Source: a virus (lineage: Duplodnaviria > Caudoviricetes). Taken from it: a DNA stretch of 64,000 bases. Positions 44,260 through 54,680 of this stretch are shown piece after piece (position 1 is the first letter of the stretch; each line of letters opens with the position of its first letter). The stretch is from IMG/VR virus record IMGVR_UViG_3300037312_000268, positions 1-64,000 of that record; one strand, given 5' to 3'. The position numbers and the translations under genes are program-made. The notes beneath the pieces were generated by a model that had not been told where the DNA came from, made no database searches, and worked only from the letters and a program-made list of their open reading frames with translations.

Positions 44260-45462
44260 TCATGAATTCTCCCTACTGTCAAAAATCAATTTATCTACAA
44301 AATCTACTACCTCTTGGTAATACTCGTAGTAAGTCGCTTCCGTTTTAAACCCCTCAATGTCTTGTGGATTGCAGGGAAATCGCTTTTTGACTACCTGCTC
44401 AATATTCCACGCTTGTTGACCTGTAACATAGAATATTTGTGTTGCGCCTATTTTAAGGCCAGCACGTTTAAGATTTCGTGCGTGAGTGTGCAGTCGACGG
44501 TCAGGTGTGTTTGAAACACCAAAACCAATAAAACTGTGGCGGCCCTCCACTTTCAGTATGTAAAAACCAGCGTCAACCCCTTTCTTATACCCTGACGTGG
44601 CACAATCAGGACACCTATTTCCTACAGCCAGGAACGCGTGGATGTTAACAGGCCAGTTACCATGAACATCACAGTTTAGTACTATCTTACTGCCAACATT
44701 CTTGTAATTGTCCTCCCACCCTACGAAGTTATACTTGAATCCCTCATATTCTAGAGTAGATTTTACTTGAAACTCTCGCTGTTGTGCCGTCCATCTATAC
44801 GCCCTTGAACACCTGCAAGACTTCTTACCCACAGATAGGTTAGCATAGCTGGAATTAAACAGTCCACTACACAGCCCATTCTTTACAAAGATATCGTCAC
44901 TACAAACACCGCAACGATATTTCCACTTATTACCCCTAGATTTACATCTACCGAAAATTGTGCCAGAAGGAAACTTGCCCACCTCAAAAAATTTCTCTAC
45001 GCAATGTTCGTCTGTGTATCCATTCTTCTCCGAGATAGTATTATTTGCACACACCCTGCATCCCACTTTGGAGGTGAGTAAAGCACTTGCCCGTAAATTA
45101 GACCACTCATTTCCGTCTAAATTACAACGTAATTTTATCTTAGTTGAATTACCTGCGAAATCCTCAACAAATCCAAGAAACGTATAATTTCTTTTTGAGC
45201 ATTCCCGTTCAACTCTCACTTTACACTGAGCCAGTGTCCATCTGTACACTCTACTTTCGCAAGCACAGGGCGTTGAACCTCTTGTCAGGCTGGATTTAGC
45301 AATAAGAAACTGGCCATCTCCAAACAATTCTGGATCAAGATTGCAGATGTGGCAAACAACTCTGTAGACCTTATCGTGTCCGCTGGACGTAACACCATCT
45401 TGACATATGACTTCTATTTGGTTGCTTTTACCAAACCTTCGCCCAATAAAAGAGTCTGTCAC
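44260..45462 (-). CDS. Zinc-ribbon repeat + GIY-YIG-like putative homing endonuclease
   Basis: Multiple CxxC pairs, SCRCS..YRWT..QREF, G.RCP.C..SGY, GFYIL...FG.SN..DRR...H. Confidence 0.75.
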   Translation of the reverse strand: MTDSFIGRRFGKSNQIEVICQDGVTSSGHDKVYRVVCHICNLDPELFGDGQFLIAKSSLTRGSTPCACESRVYRWTLAQCKVRVERECSKRNYTFLGFVEDFAGNSTKIKLRCNLDGNEWSNLRASALLTSKVGCRVCANNTISEKNGYTDEHCVEKFFEVGKFPSGTIFGRCKSRGNKWKYRCGVCSDDIFVKNGLCSGLFNSSYANLSVGKKSCRCSRAYRWTAQQREFQVKSTLEYEGFKYNFVGWEDNYKNVGSKIVLNCDVHGNWPVNIHAFLAVGNRCPDCATSGYKKGVDAGFYILKVEGRHSFIGFGVSNTPDRRLHTHARNLKRAGLKIGATQIFYVTGQQAWNIEQVVKKRFPCNPQDIEGFKTEATYYEYYQEVVDFVDKLIFDSRENS

Positions 45463-48158: not shown

Positions 48159-48539
48159 TTACCAAGTAGAAGTTCGAGTGACGATGCCATCAAAATCATA
48201 GAAGCCAGCGGGCTCTGGATAAGGCTCAGTTTTGTACCTGATGCGGGAAGCAATCAACTGCTCGTCGTCTCGACTAACAAACCCAGAACAGAACACGTGT
48301 GTGAACACATACCCTGCCACATTAGGCCAAACGTCTTGTCCAGCGTCGAAGAAGTGGACTTTGCCGCCACACTCACTGATGTACTGGCGAGTGTGCAACT
48401 TTAACAAACCAGAACCAATCCAGTCTTTGCAATCGTTAAGATTCTGGTGGATACGAATGTCAAACACGGCTACAACAGCATTAGGGTCATTGTCTGCAAT
48501 GCTTACAGCTTTTTGCAACACTTGTTCAAATGTTTTCAT
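48159..48539 (-). CDS. Hypothetical protein
   Basis: 126 aa, ATGA overlap with thyX. Confidence 0.6.
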   Translation of the reverse strand: MKTFEQVLQKAVSIADNDPNAVVAVFDIRIHQNLNDCKDWIGSGLLKLHTRQYISECGGKVHFFDAGQDVWPNVAGYVFTHVFCSGFVSRDDEQLIASRIRYKTEPYPEPAGFYDFDGIVTRTSTW

Positions 48540-49285
48540 TTTGATTCCAGTTCAAAAGCTTTAACACTCTCTGGGAACTTCTCTTCAAGAATAGCACGCA
48601 GCTTACAACCAAATTCCTGCGCAGCACCTTGCGCATGACTATCAACACGCTGCTTTACAACGCGCAGGAATGCCATCAGACTTCCACTCCAAATCCAGTG
48701 CGTCATTGAGTTTAGAGGAAGAACAATACGTGCCTCTTCGCCTGCCACACCCGCTTCAAGAAGGTTGTAATAGGTTTCGACAGAAGACTCACTTGACTTT
48801 TGAATAGCCTCTAGTGCAGTACAGTGGTTGTCGTCCATGCAGCGAATGTGGTGATAAGTGTGAACTTCTTTACTAGCACCTTGCTTAGCATTCTCAGGTT
48901 TCTTGTGCACTACTTGTGGAAGCCACAGGGCCACATCTTCTGTGATATACCTGCGGCTCTCCTCGTTAATCACAAGGCCAACAGTATGCTTGTGGAGTTG
49001 GCGTGCAAGGAAAATTGGCACAGCAACACGCACTGTTAGGAAGCAGTGTCCGAACGGGGTCCAGTGGGTACTAGCCTTAGCACGCTTCTCCCAATCATCA
49101 CGTTCACTGCTTGGCAAACCTGTTGCAAGGTATGAAAGCAATCCTTTCTGCTTGTCATTAATCTCTACAGACTCGTCATCCCACTTATTGAAACTCACCT
49201 TCGCAACATTGGACACGCGAAGATCACTGCCCATGTAATCAATCAGTTCTACGCCAATTTCCTCGTATTTAATTTCTCGGCTCAA
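48536..49285 (-). CDS. thyX: Flavin-dependent thymidylate synthase
   Basis: MGSDL.V.N.AKVSF, HWTPF.H, RQLHKH.VG..INEESRRY, EEAR.VLP, HAQ. Confidence 0.92.
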   Translation of the reverse strand: MSREIKYEEIGVELIDYMGSDLRVSNVAKVSFNKWDDESVEINDKQKGLLSYLATGLPSSERDDWEKRAKASTHWTPFGHCFLTVRVAVPIFLARQLHKHTVGLVINEESRRYITEDVALWLPQVVHKKPENAKQGASKEVHTYHHIRCMDDNHCTALEAIQKSSESSVETYYNLLEAGVAGEEARIVLPLNSMTHWIWSGSLMAFLRVVKQRVDSHAQGAAQEFGCKLRAILEEKFPESVKAFELESK

Positions 49286-50385
49286 TCTACAATCTCCGTT
49301 TCAACATCGCTCCACTTGTCATCCCAAACAACATACACAGTTTTGCCTTCTTTCTCATGAAACGGTGCAGTTCGTACGCTGGCAGTTTTACCAAGACCTT
49401 CTACGAAATCTGTATCATATTCTGCAATCTGCTGTGCAGCAAATTTGAACAACTCTGCGTATTTCTCTTCCAACGTATCACCTTCCAGTACAAACATATA
49501 TGATTCAAACTCTTTGATATACTCTGGTGTAAGAATACTATCCTTCAGTTCGATTTCGTACTCTTTTGTGATTTGTACTCGGGCAGTTTTCTTCATTTCT
49601 CACCAATCATATGTAAAAGAGTAAAGATTCTTAGAAAGCACATCTTCTTTGAACGCTACAATGTCAATACCGGCAGGATCAACATCGCAGTCTTCAATTT
49701 CGCCAAGAATATCAAGAATAAATTCCATATCAACAGTTTGATGTCGTTCGGCATAAACAGGGCCGTCGTATCCAATAAACTCTTCCGGAAGACCTTCGAA
49801 CCGTTCGAACCACGGACTTGTTCCACGCAAATTGGCAGGTACTTTCATAAACACTTCCCACCGAACCTCTAGAGGAATGTTTTTGTCCTTGATATAAGCT
49901 ACAAACTCTTCCTTGATGTCTGCGATTTGTTTGTTGAGGGCTTCTACACGTTCTTTGAAGGTTGTCATTTCTTCTCCACATCCACAACATCGCTAAACTG
50001 CTTAAGAATTCCGACAATAAACTCAGCCTTTTGTACAGCATCTTCGTCGTTCTCTGCCATCACACCTACTTTGAATTCCATATCAAACCTGTGCAGCTTA
50101 GGATTGTTATCTTTTTTGTCTTTCATTCGTTCTTCAAAATTCTTCATCAGATTATCGTTCATGTCAGCCCTTATCAATGTTTTCGTAAATAGAATCATCT
50201 TCTTCAGAAGATTCTTCCTCCATATATTCTTCGTCAGTGCACTCTACATCAATAAGTCCTGCATCGCTTACGTAAACCTCGTCATTGAGCATCAACGCAG
50301 TTTCGATACGGGTAGCTTTTCGATGAGCATCTTCCCAGTTGTCGGCTTCAAACACAGCCCAAAGTGATACGCTAAATGTTGGCAT
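49282..50385 (-). CDS. Four hypothetical ORFs (49282..49596, 49600..49968, 49965..50162, 50164..50385)
   Basis: Packed ORFs with RBS or overlaps, acidic composition. Confidence 0.55.
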
Positions 50386-50390
50386 TATTC

Positions 50391-51293
50391 TTACTCTTTC
50401 TTATGCGGCTTGACGATTCCATTCTCAAGCCCTTGTTCAAATTTCTTAACAAACTCGTCGCTGTACATCGCTTGGATGTCGTAGTAGTTTTCCCATACAA
50501 ACTCACGGAACCACCCAGAAGAAATCGAAGAAGCCAACTTTGCGTGTGCCAGATCGAAAGCTTTCTTAACGTCAGGCCACTTGTCACGATGAGGCACCAA
50601 CGCACGCTCAATGCATAATACACAGATTTCCTCGTACGCAGCGTTCAGCTTAATCTGCATCGGAAGATTGTCCCACATTGCCTTACTCACCATCACTTCG
50701 CTGTCTTCAGGTTTGAACTCAAGATATGCAGGGCGTTCACCAATCGCAACAGCTACATGAATAGTATCATGATCGTACGTGTAGATGTCGTCACGGAAGA
50801 AGCCTTCTTTGCTCTGGTTCAGTTTCGGTAGAGTGTTTGTGTACGTCTCCTTCTCCCGTTGCTTGAAGAACTCTTCGTGCTCAGGGCGAATCTTAGCGCC
50901 AAGATTTCTCATATAATGAATATCGCCCATAGTCTTGAGAAAATGCGGCGAATCTTTTTTGTAACGATGGCTCATCTTCAACAAATACAACACATCCAAG
51001 CTTGGCACAAGCGTACCACTCGCCATAACAATGTTGTCATCCTGCGCTTCCACAAATTTGACCAGCCGCTCAGCCATGCTATCAGGCCATGCAACCTCTG
51101 CTTCCACGATGGCACCGCCCACACGACGCATGTAGATGGATTTTCCGCTGTTAATAGGGTAACACACCTTCGCGTTGATGTTTTTACGGTGCGCCATAAT
51201 CTCGTCGTAGGTTCCTACCAAATCAACATCAACAGTAGGGCGCACAAGGTGTGTTACGTGCGTCTGAAGGGCCAAGCTGCCAATCAAAATCAT
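50391..51293 (-). CDS. Nucleotidyltransferase-fold protein
   Basis: N-terminal LIGS.A......R...DVD.V pol-beta-type motif; LKMSHRY...HF.KT..D; YDHD.IH. Confidence 0.7.
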   Translation of the reverse strand: MILIGSLALQTHVTHLVRPTVDVDLVGTYDEIMAHRKNINAKVCYPINSGKSIYMRRVGGAIVEAEVAWPDSMAERLVKFVEAQDDNIVMASGTLVPSLDVLYLLKMSHRYKKDSPHFLKTMGDIHYMRNLGAKIRPEHEEFFKQREKETYTNTLPKLNQSKEGFFRDDIYTYDHDTIHVAVAIGERPAYLEFKPEDSEVMVSKAMWDNLPMQIKLNAAYEEICVLCIERALVPHRDKWPDVKKAFDLAHAKLASSISSGWFREFVWENYYDIQAMYSDEFVKKFEQGLENGIVKPHKKE

Positions 51294-51310
51294 GTCAAGA
51301 TCCCTTTATC

Positions 51311-51748
51311 TCAGCAATACGACGCATTCCAGTCACTCACTTCCGACTCCATACTTTCCAGAAGAAAGTACAGCTTGTTCGTCCTGTCAGTGTCAAACCC
51401 AGCATCTTCAAGCTGATTGGAGTATGGTGTGCTGTCTGGGTAGTACTCCGCTTGCCGATCATAGTAAGGAATCTCAAACGGAACTCCAGACACATCACTC
51501 ACAAAAGACGTAGCGGAAAGAATGTCATGGGCATTTTGTGCCAGATTATCAATCTTGTCCACATCTTCTTCCGAATCAAGCTCAAGCATCTCGTCCAAAA
51601 CCTTACGTGCAGCAGAGATGTTCTCAGCAATAAACTTTGAAGCCCCTTGACGAATTTTTCCACATGCATCTGACATTTCTTTTTGCAGTGCATCGTGCTT
51701 GGCCTTCAGCTCGTTCAGATTGACACCATCAATAATGATTTCTTGCAT
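51311..51748 (-). CDS. Hypothetical protein ending SDWNASYC
   Basis: Start moved to ATG 51748 (AGGGG RBS); 145 aa. Confidence 0.65.
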   Translation of the reverse strand: MQEIIIDGVNLNELKAKHDALQKEMSDACGKIRQGASKFIAENISAARKVLDEMLELDSEEDVDKIDNLAQNAHDILSATSFVSDVSGVPFEIPYYDRQAEYYPDSTPYSNQLEDAGFDTDRTNKLYFLLESMESEVSDWNASYC

Positions 51749-51759
51749 TCTTATTCCCC

Positions 51760-52014
51760 TTAGCAGTTGTAGTACGAGCTTTGCCAATCCGAATTCAGCA
51801 TACCAATCTCATCAATCAGACCGGTGAATTCATACTCAAGCCTGACAGTGGCACCAGAGCGCTCACTAACATCTTTAATATCTCGCAGAAGTTGCTTAAT
51901 CGCTTCCACTTTCTCTGCAATGATTTTGTTGCCGTCATGGACAGAAATCACTTCCTCACCAGCCTTAGCCAGCAGTTCATCCAGACGTTTATTGCTAATC
52001 GTCACCATACTCAT
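51760..52014 (-). CDS. Hypothetical protein ending SDWQSSYYNC
   Basis: AAGGAG RBS; 84 aa. Confidence 0.65.
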   Translation of the reverse strand: MSMVTISNKRLDELLAKAGEEVISVHDGNKIIAEKVEAIKQLLRDIKDVSERSGATVRLEYEFTGLIDEIGMLNSDWQSSYYNC

Positions 52015-52041
52015 GTTTTCTCCTTTGTGTTAATAAAATGT

Positions 52042-52260
52042 TTAGCAGTTTTGCGACGAAGGGTTCCAGCCGTCGGATTCGTCACCCCATTCGTTAGTCC
52101 CACCAACTTGCTCACCATCGAAATAGCCACCCATACCGTACGCCGGAGAGAAACTAAAACCAAGTTTGTGTTCCTCTGCAAAAGCCTCTGCTGCACGAAG
52201 TGCATCGTAAACTTCTTGAACCAGTGCAGCCAGTTGTGCGTTCAGTTCTTTAGTGCTCAT
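52042..52260 (-). CDS. Hypothetical protein with AYGMGG motif ending SDGWNPSSQNC
   Basis: AAGGAG RBS; 72 aa. Confidence 0.7.
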   Translation of the reverse strand: MSTKELNAQLAALVQEVYDALRAAEAFAEEHKLGFSFSPAYGMGGYFDGEQVGGTNEWGDESDGWNPSSQNC

Positions 52261-52280
52261 AATATTTCTCCTTAGTTAAT

Positions 52281-52595
52281 TTACCAGATTTTGACTGCGT
52301 GAATTACACGTGGCTCAACGGATTTGAAAATTGCTTTCCATCGCTCATGAGCATCCACAACATGATTGATTAGCGTGTCAGGGCTTTCGCCACCGATTTC
52401 AAAGCCAACGAACCAATCTTCTCCACTATGGCAATCAAGACACATCGCACACATCCCTAGATGCGTACCACCATCACACATATCTGTAATCTGGTCTTCC
52501 GTCAAGTACGTGTTCTCTGCCAGAAAGTCTACAACTCGCCACTCTTTGCCGAACCGCTTACCGATTCCGAGGAAAGCTTCGTATTCGGTGCTCAT
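52281..52595 (-). CDS. Hypothetical protein
   Basis: AAGGAG RBS; 104 aa. Confidence 0.6.
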   Translation of the reverse strand: MSTEYEAFLGIGKRFGKEWRVVDFLAENTYLTEDQITDMCDGGTHLGMCAMCLDCHSGEDWFVGFEIGGESPDTLINHVVDAHERWKAIFKSVEPRVIHAVKIW

Positions 52596-52776
52596 TCTCT
52601 TCTCCTTTAGTTATCTCTACAAAATCTATGCGAATCAACAACCCTGTCACATTTCAACCTACTAGCCCATGCAGGTGCAATGTCCTTGCGGAAGTAATAC
52701 GTGTACCTGTCATCCAGTACGTGTAGCATACCTGACTTTTCCCATTGTAGCAAGAACTTTTTATTCCGTAATATTG

Positions 52777-53589
52777 TTATGAGCACAGGCTGTAGGCAAT
52801 TTTCTCTTCTACAAAAGAAATAAGATCATCATAATTATGGTAGCTAGTAGATTCTTCTATAAAACCTTTAACATTAATACCTGACTTGTAGAAATTTTTT
52901 CGTATTTCACGCTCCATTGACAGTGCCATACTGCCCGTATTAAAATGAAAGAACTCCATTTCAGTCATTACGAAACCTTTTTTCCTGAGAGAACACTTAT
53001 GTTGACGGATTCGATGGTCTACGCAACCGCTTATTCCATACCCTGTAAAAGACTCGCCTGTAACGTTGTTTACAGCACGAATTACGTAAAGTGCGCCGGG
53101 ATTGTTTGCCTTGAAACCTGTGGTGGAGCAACATGGACATCCCGCACCGTTCATAAAATTACCTATGGAGATTGTCCACTCGTAGTTTTTTACACATTTC
53201 AGCACCATCTTGGAAAGTGCGCCATGATAACCGTCTCTCCACCTTACGAACTCTACTCCATCACCACGCTCTTTTAGAATTTTATTTATTACGAATTCTC
53301 TTTGATCTTTAGTCCATCTGAAAGCCTTAGAACAGCGACAAGAAAGTTGGCCTTTTCTAAGCGTAGCCTCTGCGCTCTCAAAAATACCATCACAAAGACC
53401 CGCATCTACAAATTCATCATTAGAGCATTTGGGGCATTTGTATTTCCAATAATACAACCTTTTAGAGTTTTTCTCTGTGTCACTCGGCCAAAATTCAAAG
53501 CCTCCACCTATACTGCCAGCACGTGTAAACTCCGCTATTTTCCACTTCACCCATTCATCAAAAGAATGCTTAATTGAAGGCCATTTCAT
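52777..53589 (-). CDS. Zinc-ribbon + GIY-YIG-like putative homing endonuclease (shorter paralog of 44260..45462)
   Basis: WKYKCPKCS.D.FV..GLC.G.F, SCRCSKAFRWT..QREF, GCPCC..GF, ALYVI...YGIS. Confidence 0.75.
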   Translation of the reverse strand: MKWPSIKHSFDEWVKWKIAEFTRAGSIGGGFEFWPSDTEKNSKRLYYWKYKCPKCSNDEFVDAGLCDGIFESAEATLRKGQLSCRCSKAFRWTKDQREFVINKILKERGDGVEFVRWRDGYHGALSKMVLKCVKNYEWTISIGNFMNGAGCPCCSTTGFKANNPGALYVIRAVNNVTGESFTGYGISGCVDHRIRQHKCSLRKKGFVMTEMEFFHFNTGSMALSMEREIRKNFYKSGINVKGFIEESTSYHNYDDLISFVEEKIAYSLCS

Positions 53590-53774
53590 TGCATGGCTTC
53601 CAATTGTCGGAGCAATTTACGTTTCTTGACAATACGTCTTGCCTCCTTGATCTTCTCAACCATCTCTACAACACCCCTGTCACGGTAGTAGATAAGTTGC
53701 TGGGTGATCCTAGCAGCAGGGCTGACCTCCACAAAGTCTGCCAGTTCTTCAACAGTACAAGTCTGATAATTCAT
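53586..53774 (-). CDS. 62-aa helical protein coupled to endonuclease gene (paralog of 45459..45650)
   Basis: GGAG RBS; ATGA overlap with endonuclease start. Confidence 0.7.
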   Translation of the reverse strand: MNYQTCTVEELADFVEVSPAARITQQLIYYRDRGVVEMVEKIKEARRIVKKRKLLRQLEAMQ

Positions 53775-53800
53775 AATATCTCCAATCGTCCAAAGATGTT

Positions 53801-53829
53801 ATCTTACCACGACATTGAGTTGCTGTCAA
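53801..53829 (-). promoter_or_regulatory. sigma70-type promoter
   Basis: TTGACA-17 nt-TAAGAT. Confidence 0.75.
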
Positions 53830-53833
53830 GTAT

Positions 53834-54247
53834 TTATGACTTGCTACAAAAGTAGACTAGTTTTCCTATCTTAGAGACCTTAGTCATCTTATCAGCCCAT
53901 TTGGGTGGCTCAATATCTGTACTGTAGAAGTGGTCAGCGCAAGGTGGTAGTACAGGGCGCATCCTACGCGATTCCTCATATCGTACCAACCAGTCTGGAG
54001 TAGTTTTCATCTTAATATTCTTACGCCACCATGAAAATTGCCCTCGCCGAGACACAATCGCCCTACAACTCTTGTGCTGCTTTTGCATCCTGTGCTGCAC
54101 CACTTCTATAACTCCTTTCACAGCGCGCAAGCTTTGGTTCTCAGCTTCACGCTTAGCTGTGTATGCTAGGCAGGTGTTGTCTGCCACCTTCGCTTGAGCG
54201 CTGCTGGAGAGCGCCATCAGGAGCAAGATGGCTGAAGCTGTGCTCAA
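53834..54247 (-). CDS. Cell wall hydrolase (SleB / Hydrolase_2 family)
   Basis: Signal-like N-terminus; CLAYT..REA..., V...V..R, IV...GQFSW, FY.....P.WA. Confidence 0.8.
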   Translation of the reverse strand: MSTASAILLLMALSSSAQAKVADNTCLAYTAKREAENQSLRAVKGVIEVVQHRMQKQHKSCRAIVSRRGQFSWWRKNIKMKTTPDWLVRYEESRRMRPVLPPCADHFYSTDIEPPKWADKMTKVSKIGKLVYFCSKS

Positions 54248-54492
54248 CTAACATCCTTCTCAATCGTCATCATCAGCCCCTCAAAATGTGGATGCATACC
54301 CAATCCAGTGTACGGTCCGAATATCTCCATCAAATTCCAAAGCTGGATTCGCAACGTTTCTCCTGCCACCTTCGTATCGATTTCATACCTGTCAGGAAGA
54401 TTTAGATTTTTGTAACGGGCATTATAAATTTGTGCTCCGCCTTGCGTCAGCTTCACTTCTACAGTCTCGTTAAGATTGATTTCAAATTTCAT
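54244..54492 (-). CDS. Hypothetical protein
   Basis: INLN..V.VKLT..G and QLW.LM.IFG motifs. Confidence 0.6.
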   Translation of the reverse strand: MKFEINLNETVEVKLTQGGAQIYNARYKNLNLPDRYEIDTKVAGETLRIQLWNLMEIFGPYTGLGMHPHFEGLMMTIEKDVS

Positions 54493-54680
54493 CGCCCTTG
54501 ATCCTCCATAGGAAAGCCCAATTCGTCCTTCGCCTTTTGTGTTGGCGTTCTTGTGTCTTCTACACTCATATACCCTCCTAATCAGTTAAGTGCAGCCACT
54601 GTACCAGCATTGTTCGAACACGTCAACAACAATTTTAGCGAAGCTATCCATTCTTACGCAATGCTATCTCAACATAGTGC

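Follow-up and report, generated by a model that had tools for sequence, protein, structure and literature searches.

The window considered here is a whole stretch of 64,000 nucleotides, positions 1 to 64,000 of the IMG/VR virus record IMGVR_UViG_3300037312_000268, which comes from an uncultured phage group with genomes of ~87-90 kb. On its minus strand, positions 50391-52260 hold four tightly packed open reading frames (ORFs). Three of them, a, b and c, code for small proteins that end in a common C-terminal tail with the consensus W-x-x-S...C, and the fourth codes for a nucleotidyltransferase (NTase)-like enzyme. A first reading of the sequence alone (the original prediction) had described three consecutive genes for proteins of 72, 84 and 145 residues with such a tail and an NTase gene 17 nt further on, and we confirmed these ORFs. 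The features of this module are as follows, pI being the isoelectric point.

52042-52260, minus strand: tail protein a, 72 aa, pI 4.05, ending in ...ESDGWNPSSQNC with the tail GWNPSSQNC-stop; its parts are a long N-terminal helix, an F-x-F strand, a PAYGMGGYF motif, an acidic loop and the tail
52045-52068, minus strand: tail of protein a, eight residues, W-N-P-S-S-Q-N-C
51760-52014, minus strand: tail protein b, 84 aa, pI 4.75, ending in ...NSDWQSSYYNC-stop
51763-51786, minus strand: tail of protein b, eight residues, W-Q-S-S-Y-Y-N-C
51311-51748, minus strand: tail protein c, 145 aa from the ATG at 51748, pI 4.18, ending in ...VSDWNASYC-stop
51314-51331, minus strand: tail of protein c, six residues, W-N-A-S-Y-C
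50391-51293, minus strand: NTase-like enzyme, 300 aa, with DUF7277 (residues 1-72) and DUF7275 (residues 101-279)
51222-51281, minus strand: Pol-beta NTase signature G5-S6 ... D22-x-D24 of the enzyme

The NTase ORF, which begins with MILIGSLALQTHVTHLVRPTVDVDLVG and thereby carries the G5-S6 ... D22-x-D24 signature, starts 17 nt after the stop codon of protein c. For the latter, an alternative TTG start at 51787 would give a protein of 158 aa. Among the 833 ORFs of at least 35 aa in the whole 87,417-bp genome, only a, b and c match W-x-x-S-x(1-4)-C-stop, and the earlier remark that no other ORF of the window ends this way thus extends to the entire genome. Looser W...C endings elsewhere in the genome belong to antisense or junk ORFs.

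The bodies of the three tailed proteins had been described as unrelated-looking, an impression that had to be abandoned. Protein a (E 2.8e-13) and protein c (E 3.4e-4) both match phrog_899 (C-terminal part). We built profiles from the orthologue sets of a, b and c, from which the tails had been cut and one sequence common to the sets removed, and compared them using hhalign. The a-b and b-c pairs matched with Prob 96.5% (E 8.6e-10) and Prob 93.6% (E 2.2e-7), respectively, and the a-c pair with Prob 35% (E 4e-4), while reversed-sequence controls gave 1.7-3.3%. Based on these tail-free matches, the carriers are old, diverged paralogues, and profile comparison places a, b and c in one phrog_899-like family. 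We also collected 217 unique tailed ORFs from related loci and cut their last 12 residues; by BLAST single-linkage, the remaining bodies fall mostly into one cluster. Each paralogue type forms an orthologous line that is kept across related phages, usually in the same order. Searches of phage records by tblastn yielded 191 records for protein a and no match for protein c, which has 18 orthologues in related loci with the common end ...LESMESxVxDWNTSYC.

The tailed proteins are acidic, with a median pI of 4.5, and their common core consists of a long helix and, after it, a short hydrophobic strand; in type a this core reads ...AExxAxEHxLxFxF-PAYGMGGYY. The AlphaFold2 model of protein a (predicted local distance difference test, pLDDT, 87) shows a helix at residues 3-30 and two strands that pair together, at residues 45-47 in the GGY motif and at residues 65-67 in the W-N-P of the tail. 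Searches with this model identified no similar solved fold, the PDB hits having Z-scores of 3.7 or less and small helical proteins giving weak signals, and a BFVD search returned its own family only. In the ESM Atlas, protein a matched unnamed clusters at 0.78, with uninformative structure rows.

In an alignment of 26 homologues of type a, only F35, W65, S68 and C72 are invariant, and the mean column identity is 35%. The original prediction had counted it as evidence against itself if the three proteins proved to be ordinary full-length paralogues. Paralogues they are, as judged by profiles, but not ordinary ones: the Trp, Ser and Cys of the tail are invariant while the bodies average ~35% column identity, and the tail is the part under selection. 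As a non-circular test of its conservation, a tail-free profile with the last ten residues cut was searched against 1.84 billion cluster representatives. It matched 927 clusters at E 1e-3 or below, 507 of them at E 1e-10 or below, and 139 of the best 150 of the 927 have a W-x-x-S-x(1-4)-C end. The untailed rest of these 150 are mostly truncated or extend one to three residues beyond the Cys.

Two classes make up most of the 217 unique tails, W-x-x-S-S-x-x-C with 150 and W-x-x-S-x-C with 58. The tag had initially been written with S-D or S-D-G before the Trp. The W-x-x-S...C part of this description applies to the whole family, but S-D is local to this phage group, the residue before the tail Trp usually being Gly or acidic elsewhere. 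In rare tails, the Cys is followed by one to three residues (...WSSSNCY, ...STESCN, ...STQSCS, ...SSEGCS and ...SHSCYYR); these tails come from locus L081, whose ORF ends 91 nt into the enzyme ORF, and from the proteins P0133, P0159, P0235 and P0266. Therefore, the Cys is not strictly terminal in every member.

To describe the linkage between tail genes and enzyme, we retrieved 80 IMG/VR loci with the enzyme alignment, and 36 loci were seeded only on the body motif [AT]YGMGG[YT][YF]. In 72 of the 80 enzyme-seeded loci, one to five tailed ORFs lie on the strand of the enzyme gene and within 3 kb upstream of it, with a median gap of 17.5 nt between the last tail stop and the enzyme start. The other eight comprise three contig ends, two loci with downstream tails, one with the ...WSSSNCY end and two with none. 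Reciprocally, 35 of the 36 body-seeded loci harbour the enzyme gene at most 1.6 kb downstream, and the remaining one is a contig end. The co-occurrence and synteny that the original prediction called for are thus found in both directions. Sorted by position over the 80 loci (815 kb), tail ORFs account for 175 of the 1,094 same-strand ORFs up to 3 kb upstream of the NTase gene, 13 of the 2,193 other same-strand ORFs and none of the 3,850 opposite-strand ORFs. The enrichment of tails beside the NTase gene is far beyond chance.

Clustering of all ORFs in the 80 loci identified no third conserved gene near the pair, which therefore travels alone through unrelated phage groups. These are Tevenvirinae, Twarogvirinae, Stephanstirmvirinae, jumbo phages and the 87-kb group of the window. 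Four cultured phages that are unrelated to one another have this arrangement.

RB69: ORF136c, 137c and 138c tailed; enzyme ORF134c
ESCO5: gp061, 062 and 064 tailed; enzyme gp060
Acinetobacter phage Apostate: orf064 and orf066 tailed; enzyme orf061
Ralstonia jumbo phage RsoM2USA: genes 119 and 120 tailed; enzyme gene 118

Whole-genome pattern scans of these four phages found all clean W-x-x-S-S-x-x-C-stop ends within the enzyme array. A W-H-V-S-T-G-N-C-stop end at 133742-133768 (minus strand) of RsoM2USA (MG752970.1), ~52 kb from the enzyme gene, may be a chance match or an orphan tail gene. The patterns of the enzyme were also searched in 185,579 genomes of prokaryote species. They yielded six loci, all on contigs of metagenome-assembled genomes and all with upstream tailed ORFs. 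The module is a two-part, virus-only cassette. One 157-kb viral contig, IMGVR_UViG_3300012943_000029, carries two enzyme copies (L071 and L078). One of them has a canonical tailed ORF directly upstream, and for the other there is just an ORF that contains ...DAWSSQEA... internally and lacks a terminal Cys.

The enzyme matches DUF7277 (PF23942; E 4.9e-8, 34.0 bits) and DUF7275 (PF23940; E 1.1e-60, 205.2 bits), both with Pfam gathering cut-offs of 27 bits, and it belongs to phrog_2141 (E 2.6e-89 in PHROGs). No other Pfam family, including DUF1814 and PF10127, was found up to E 10. PADLOC gave no match and NCBIfam nothing meaningful, and a profile search against PDB sequences gave no match at E 1 or below. 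Homologues number 1,211 at E 1e-5 or below in a large protein collection, and the enzyme was detected by tblastn in 731 phage records. A search for longer or fused forms (526-2000 aa) revealed none, and none of the 120 closest enzymes itself ends in a tail. A W-x-x-S with the spacing of the partner tails occurs in the enzyme as W69-P-D-S72 (51078-51089, minus strand), in an insert specific to the long form; its Trp is present in 64 and its Ser in 68 of the 93 unique tail-linked enzymes, and the resemblance may be a coincidence.

An alignment of 35 diverse homologues showed G5, S6, D22, D24 and E64 to be invariant, as are K106, H109, K113, R146, H175, D176, H179, E221, E222, R230, K252 and R263. 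Among the 93 tail-linked enzymes, G5 and S6 are each kept in 87, D22 in 90, D24 in 92, E64 in 84 and K106 in all 93. Departures at the first four positions are alignment gaps, except that S6 is once Gly and D22 twice Glu. A further 13 residues are likewise (near-)invariant in these enzymes. The Pol-beta motif hG[GS]...[DE]h[DE]h and a third carboxylate (E64) are thus present, being conserved in 84-92 of the 93 enzymes. The AlphaFold2 model of the enzyme (pLDDT 92.5, predicted template modelling score 0.86) has an NTase fold. Its nearest solved folds are MenT1 (8an4, Z 9.8 over 149 aa, root-mean-square deviation 3.8), TglT/MenT3 (6j7n, Z 9.2) and MenT4 (6y56, Z 9.0). These alignments span 138-149 residues and reach residue 266-270 of the enzyme, a likeness at the level of the fold only; Foldseek matched the model to MenT with E 8.5e-5. 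ANT(2'')-Ia (Z 8.8) and LnuA (Z 8.5) align with the N-terminal half only, over ~130-150 residues. Based on this fold and the conserved signature, the enzyme is predicted to be a Pol-beta NTase of the MenT/ANT structural class, and its intact active-site signature makes it look active. The identification of the neighbour as a Pol-beta-type NTase, made at the outset, is therefore sound.

The proximity to the MenT folds brings up a regulatory explanation akin to the MenAT systems. The NTase would act on tRNA or another RNA, for host shut-off or repair, and the tailed proteins would be its inhibitors or regulators. Their N-terminal helix would bind the enzyme, while the tail would plug or re-tune the active site, for instance with the Cys thiolate and carboxylate placed on the catalytic metals as a cysteine switch. 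The small helical partner encoded immediately upstream, with a gap of ~17 nt as in toxin-antitoxin operons, fits this proposal. Furthermore, the 68-aa antitoxin MenA1 is a small helical protein that acts through its N-terminal helix (PMC11375011), and protein a has a 28-residue N-terminal helix. In contrast, up to five or six long-diverged paralogue lines per enzyme, conserved as orthologues, are hard to reconcile with one inhibitor, and the enzyme has no sequence match to DUF1814 or to the PADLOC AbiE models. In MenT enzymes, the phospho-acceptor Ser or Thr is found two residues before the first catalytic Asp (T39 in MenT1, S78 in MenT3; PMC11375011). That position is T20 in the enzyme of the window but is not conserved among the 93 enzymes, with Pro the commonest (47) and Ile, Ser and Gly in six each. 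The module is also virus-only, unlike a chromosomal toxin-antitoxin locus. We consider regulation of this kind doubtful, although likelier than the three further explanations discussed below.

A sister clade of short DUF7275 enzymes of ~250 aa was found in Gordonia, Streptomyces and KVP40-like Vibrio phages. These enzymes retain the G-S...D-x-D start and the whole of DUF7275 and match only the first ~30 positions of DUF7277, most of which is thus missing. No Cys-tailed neighbours are encoded next to them. Instead, 31 of 33 short-form IMG/VR loci harbour a different small family on the same strand, in one to four copies, and both exceptions are contig ends. Short-form enzymes occur at L120:2429-4058, L121:3354-6216, L122:3094-4151, L123:3300-4461 and L130-L162, and named examples are Gordonia OneUp gp10-12 and Streptomyces BillNye gp180-187. 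The companions share the core GGEGxGD...VFKV.D..RYFRK.GYY.SYDG..WDG..EV.P....TVYE. Their genes usually lie just downstream of the short enzyme gene, and upstream in the KVP40 group. At L159:3788-4951, short enzyme and companion form a single 387-aa ORF, a natural fusion. The short-form system thus resembles the tailed one in pairing one enzyme, with the same domain and start, with a multi-copy, same-strand small partner, but the partner is unrelated, lacks the Cys tail and has a different usual position.

The companion family has no profile similarity to the tail families a, b and c, and it gave no match in the 80 long-form loci. We considered whether the companion supplies the missing DUF7277 strands, as in a split enzyme. 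This idea was rejected at the sequence level, since hhalign comparison of the companion core with the full enzyme or with its residues 25-100 reached a Prob of 0.2% at most. In OneUp (L120:4110-5426), the short enzyme and two companions are encoded immediately upstream of the tRNA gene cluster of the phage, and in BillNye the short enzyme gene is ~2 kb from a polynucleotide kinase gene. These neighbours may point to an RNA-related role.

The strongest case for a direct partnership between the small proteins and the enzymes comes from these two clades, each with its exclusive multi-copy partner, and from the one fusion. These observations also bear on three other explanations. The first denies any functional link and sees in the tailed genes ordinary tandem paralogues that lie near the enzyme gene by ancestry and position. 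That a, b and c are indeed paralogues agrees with it, but the pair recurs in unrelated phage families without another common neighbour, opposite-strand tails are absent, and the sister clade has swapped its partner family and once fused with it. We regard this explanation as practically excluded. In the second, the tail would act on a conserved host factor, for instance as a decoy or inhibitor with its terminal Cys engaging an enzyme of the host, and the NTase would act in the same host pathway without touching the tailed proteins. The presence of the same tail in phages of Escherichia, Acinetobacter, Ralstonia, Pseudomonas and uncultured hosts is as expected for a universal target, and acidity is common among phage mimic proteins. 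Nevertheless, a direct partnership accounts more easily for the two-way, near-obligate adjacency and for the lack of tail genes where only the short enzyme is present, and no host family was identified. A common host target is thus unlikely. The third has the tail dock, unmodified, on the enzyme, so that the diverged bodies act as adaptors that bring host or phage macromolecules for modification by the NTase. One invariant tail on diverged bodies, a single enzyme per array and a variable copy number would suit adaptors, and the sister-clade fusion shows that a partner can act in cis with its enzyme. However, an invariant Ser and an obligatory terminal Cys exceed the usual needs of a docking motif, and the bodies have one small conserved core of helix, strand and Gly-rich motif rather than distinct binding domains. 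We therefore see adaptors as a slim prospect, no better than the host target.

We favour, tentatively and as somewhat short of an even chance, a model in which the tailed proteins are substrates. One enzyme is paired with one to six diverged, small acidic paralogues, each of which would be a dedicated protein substrate, and the tail W-x-x-S-(x or S-x-x)-C-COOH would be the element that it recognises. The Trp would anchor the tail. The Ser hydroxyl at W+3 would accept a nucleoside monophosphate (NMP), or a phosphate as transferred by MenT enzymes, at the D-x-D/Glu metal site. The thiol and carboxylate of the terminal Cys might help to bind the metal site or perform a follow-up step, and the diverged bodies would carry the tail, once modified, to different targets inside the infected cell. 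The existence of several conserved orthologous paralogue lines per phage is more in keeping with a number of substrates or effectors than with one inhibitor. The fold neighbours MenT1, MenT3, MenT4, ANT(2'') and LnuA attach NMP to hydroxyls, either on tRNA or on small molecules. In addition, a protein Ser or Thr within the active site of a MenT enzyme can be phosphorylated by that enzyme (PMC11375011).

Several points weigh against tail modification. Contact between enzyme and tail is an inference, as are the nucleotide, the residue that accepts it and the role further downstream. In the AlphaFold2 model of protein a, the Trp of the tail lies back against the GGY motif of the same chain, and the tail may therefore belong to the fold instead of being a free acceptor peptide. 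Within each paralogue type, the 'x' positions of the tail are kept, which a single common enzyme pocket would not require, and the spacing from Ser to Cys ranges from one to four residues. A small, tightly coupled upstream gene combined with a MenT-like fold suits an antitoxin-like regulator equally well. Lastly, a canonical tail is missing from a few loci of the enzyme (L054, L078 and, with its ...WSSSNCY end, L081). A complex prediction for the NTase and protein a, with alignments for both, scored 0.09; it gives no verdict and is evidence neither way.

The substrate model could be extended to the whole of the DUF7275 enzymes, which would then form an undescribed class of phage protein-modifying NTases, every clade with a multi-copy family of small protein substrates of its own. 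In the long-form clade, O-nucleotidylation of the tail Ser, perhaps followed by a further reaction of the Cys, would yield covalently armed small effectors that act during infection: for example, elimination and thiol addition might produce a C-terminal thioether ring, or the Cys might capture a target. This extension is speculative and, in our estimate, rather improbable.

In the genome of the window, the module sits in a leftward block of small genes, between the ORF at 52777-53589 and the gene at 48536-49285. Large Cys-rich ORFs are found on either side of the region on the minus strand, at 52777-53589 (270 aa) and 44260-45462 (400 aa). The gene at 48536-49285 (minus strand) codes for a protein of 249 aa containing ...ESRRY..., which resembles flavin-dependent thymidylate synthase (ThyX). 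Of the 80 loci, 14 have a related ORF ~1.7 kb downstream of the enzyme gene. A search for tRNA genes in the window gave none, a scan of 49000-54500 for promoters and terminators gave no signals above shuffled expectation, and megablast of the region matched no phage record. Judged by its DNA polymerase, the phage is closest, among cultured ones, to Pseudomonas phage vB_PsaM_M1, with 45.5% amino-acid identity.

The module is widespread, with at least 927 clusters at 50% identity for the tail family and 731 deposited phage genomes for the enzyme. The carriers of the latter include the laboratory phage RB69 and therapeutic-candidate phages of Acinetobacter, Klebsiella and E. coli. The obligate association of an invariant Trp...Ser...Cys tail with an NTase that looks active is suggestive of a specific biochemical reaction. 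Modification of the tail, if it occurs, would represent a new post-translational chemistry of phages. If the tailed proteins regulate a MenT-like enzyme, lytic phages carry toxin-antitoxin-like modules that modify tRNA. In either case, several conserved genes listed as 'hypothetical' in many large phages would gain a function.

Our literature searches on DUF7275, DUF7277, their phrog families and the RB69 ORFs found no paper on either gene family. The closest described systems are MenAT/AbiE (MenT1-MenA1, MenT3/TglT-TakA, MenT4 and AbiEii-AbiEi), which share with the module a two-domain Pol-beta NTase with G-S...D-x-D and a small gene directly upstream. They differ from it in sequence, with ~12% identity and the mismatch to the DUF1814 and PADLOC models noted above, in the phospho-acceptor position, which is not conserved here, and in the partner, which here is multi-copy with an invariant W-x-x-S...C-COOH tail and confined to viral contigs. 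To our knowledge, no MenA or AbiEi protein has such a tail. ANT(2'')-Ia and LnuA resemble the enzyme in their N-terminal fold and transfer NMP onto the hydroxyl of a non-nucleic-acid acceptor, as proposed for the tail Ser. Unlike it, they are devoid of the DUF7275 helical domain with its invariant His, Asp and Glu, they have no protein partner, and their substrates are small molecules.

The analogy first drawn with the MccA-MccB pair and with ribosomally synthesized and post-translationally modified peptides breaks down at each of its defining points. A conserved C-terminal element adjoins a nucleotide-using enzyme in both cases. However, MccB is an E1/ThiF-type enzyme that acts on the C-terminal Asn of a 7-residue peptide, whereas the tailed proteins are folded, homologous carriers of 60-200 aa with a terminal Cys, next to a Pol-beta enzyme. 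In addition, export, immunity and protease genes are not conserved in the 80 loci. RlaP (PF10127) is an RNA-ligase-associated NTase (PMC7824862), and this identity is not supported for the enzyme, which has no PF10127 match at E 10 or below; no RNA ligase is conserved in the 80 loci. Newly found here is the short-form clade, with its own partner family and a fusion. The module falls within a known kind of system, a Pol-beta NTase with a dedicated small protein partner, and there is a real chance that it represents a new protein-modification system.

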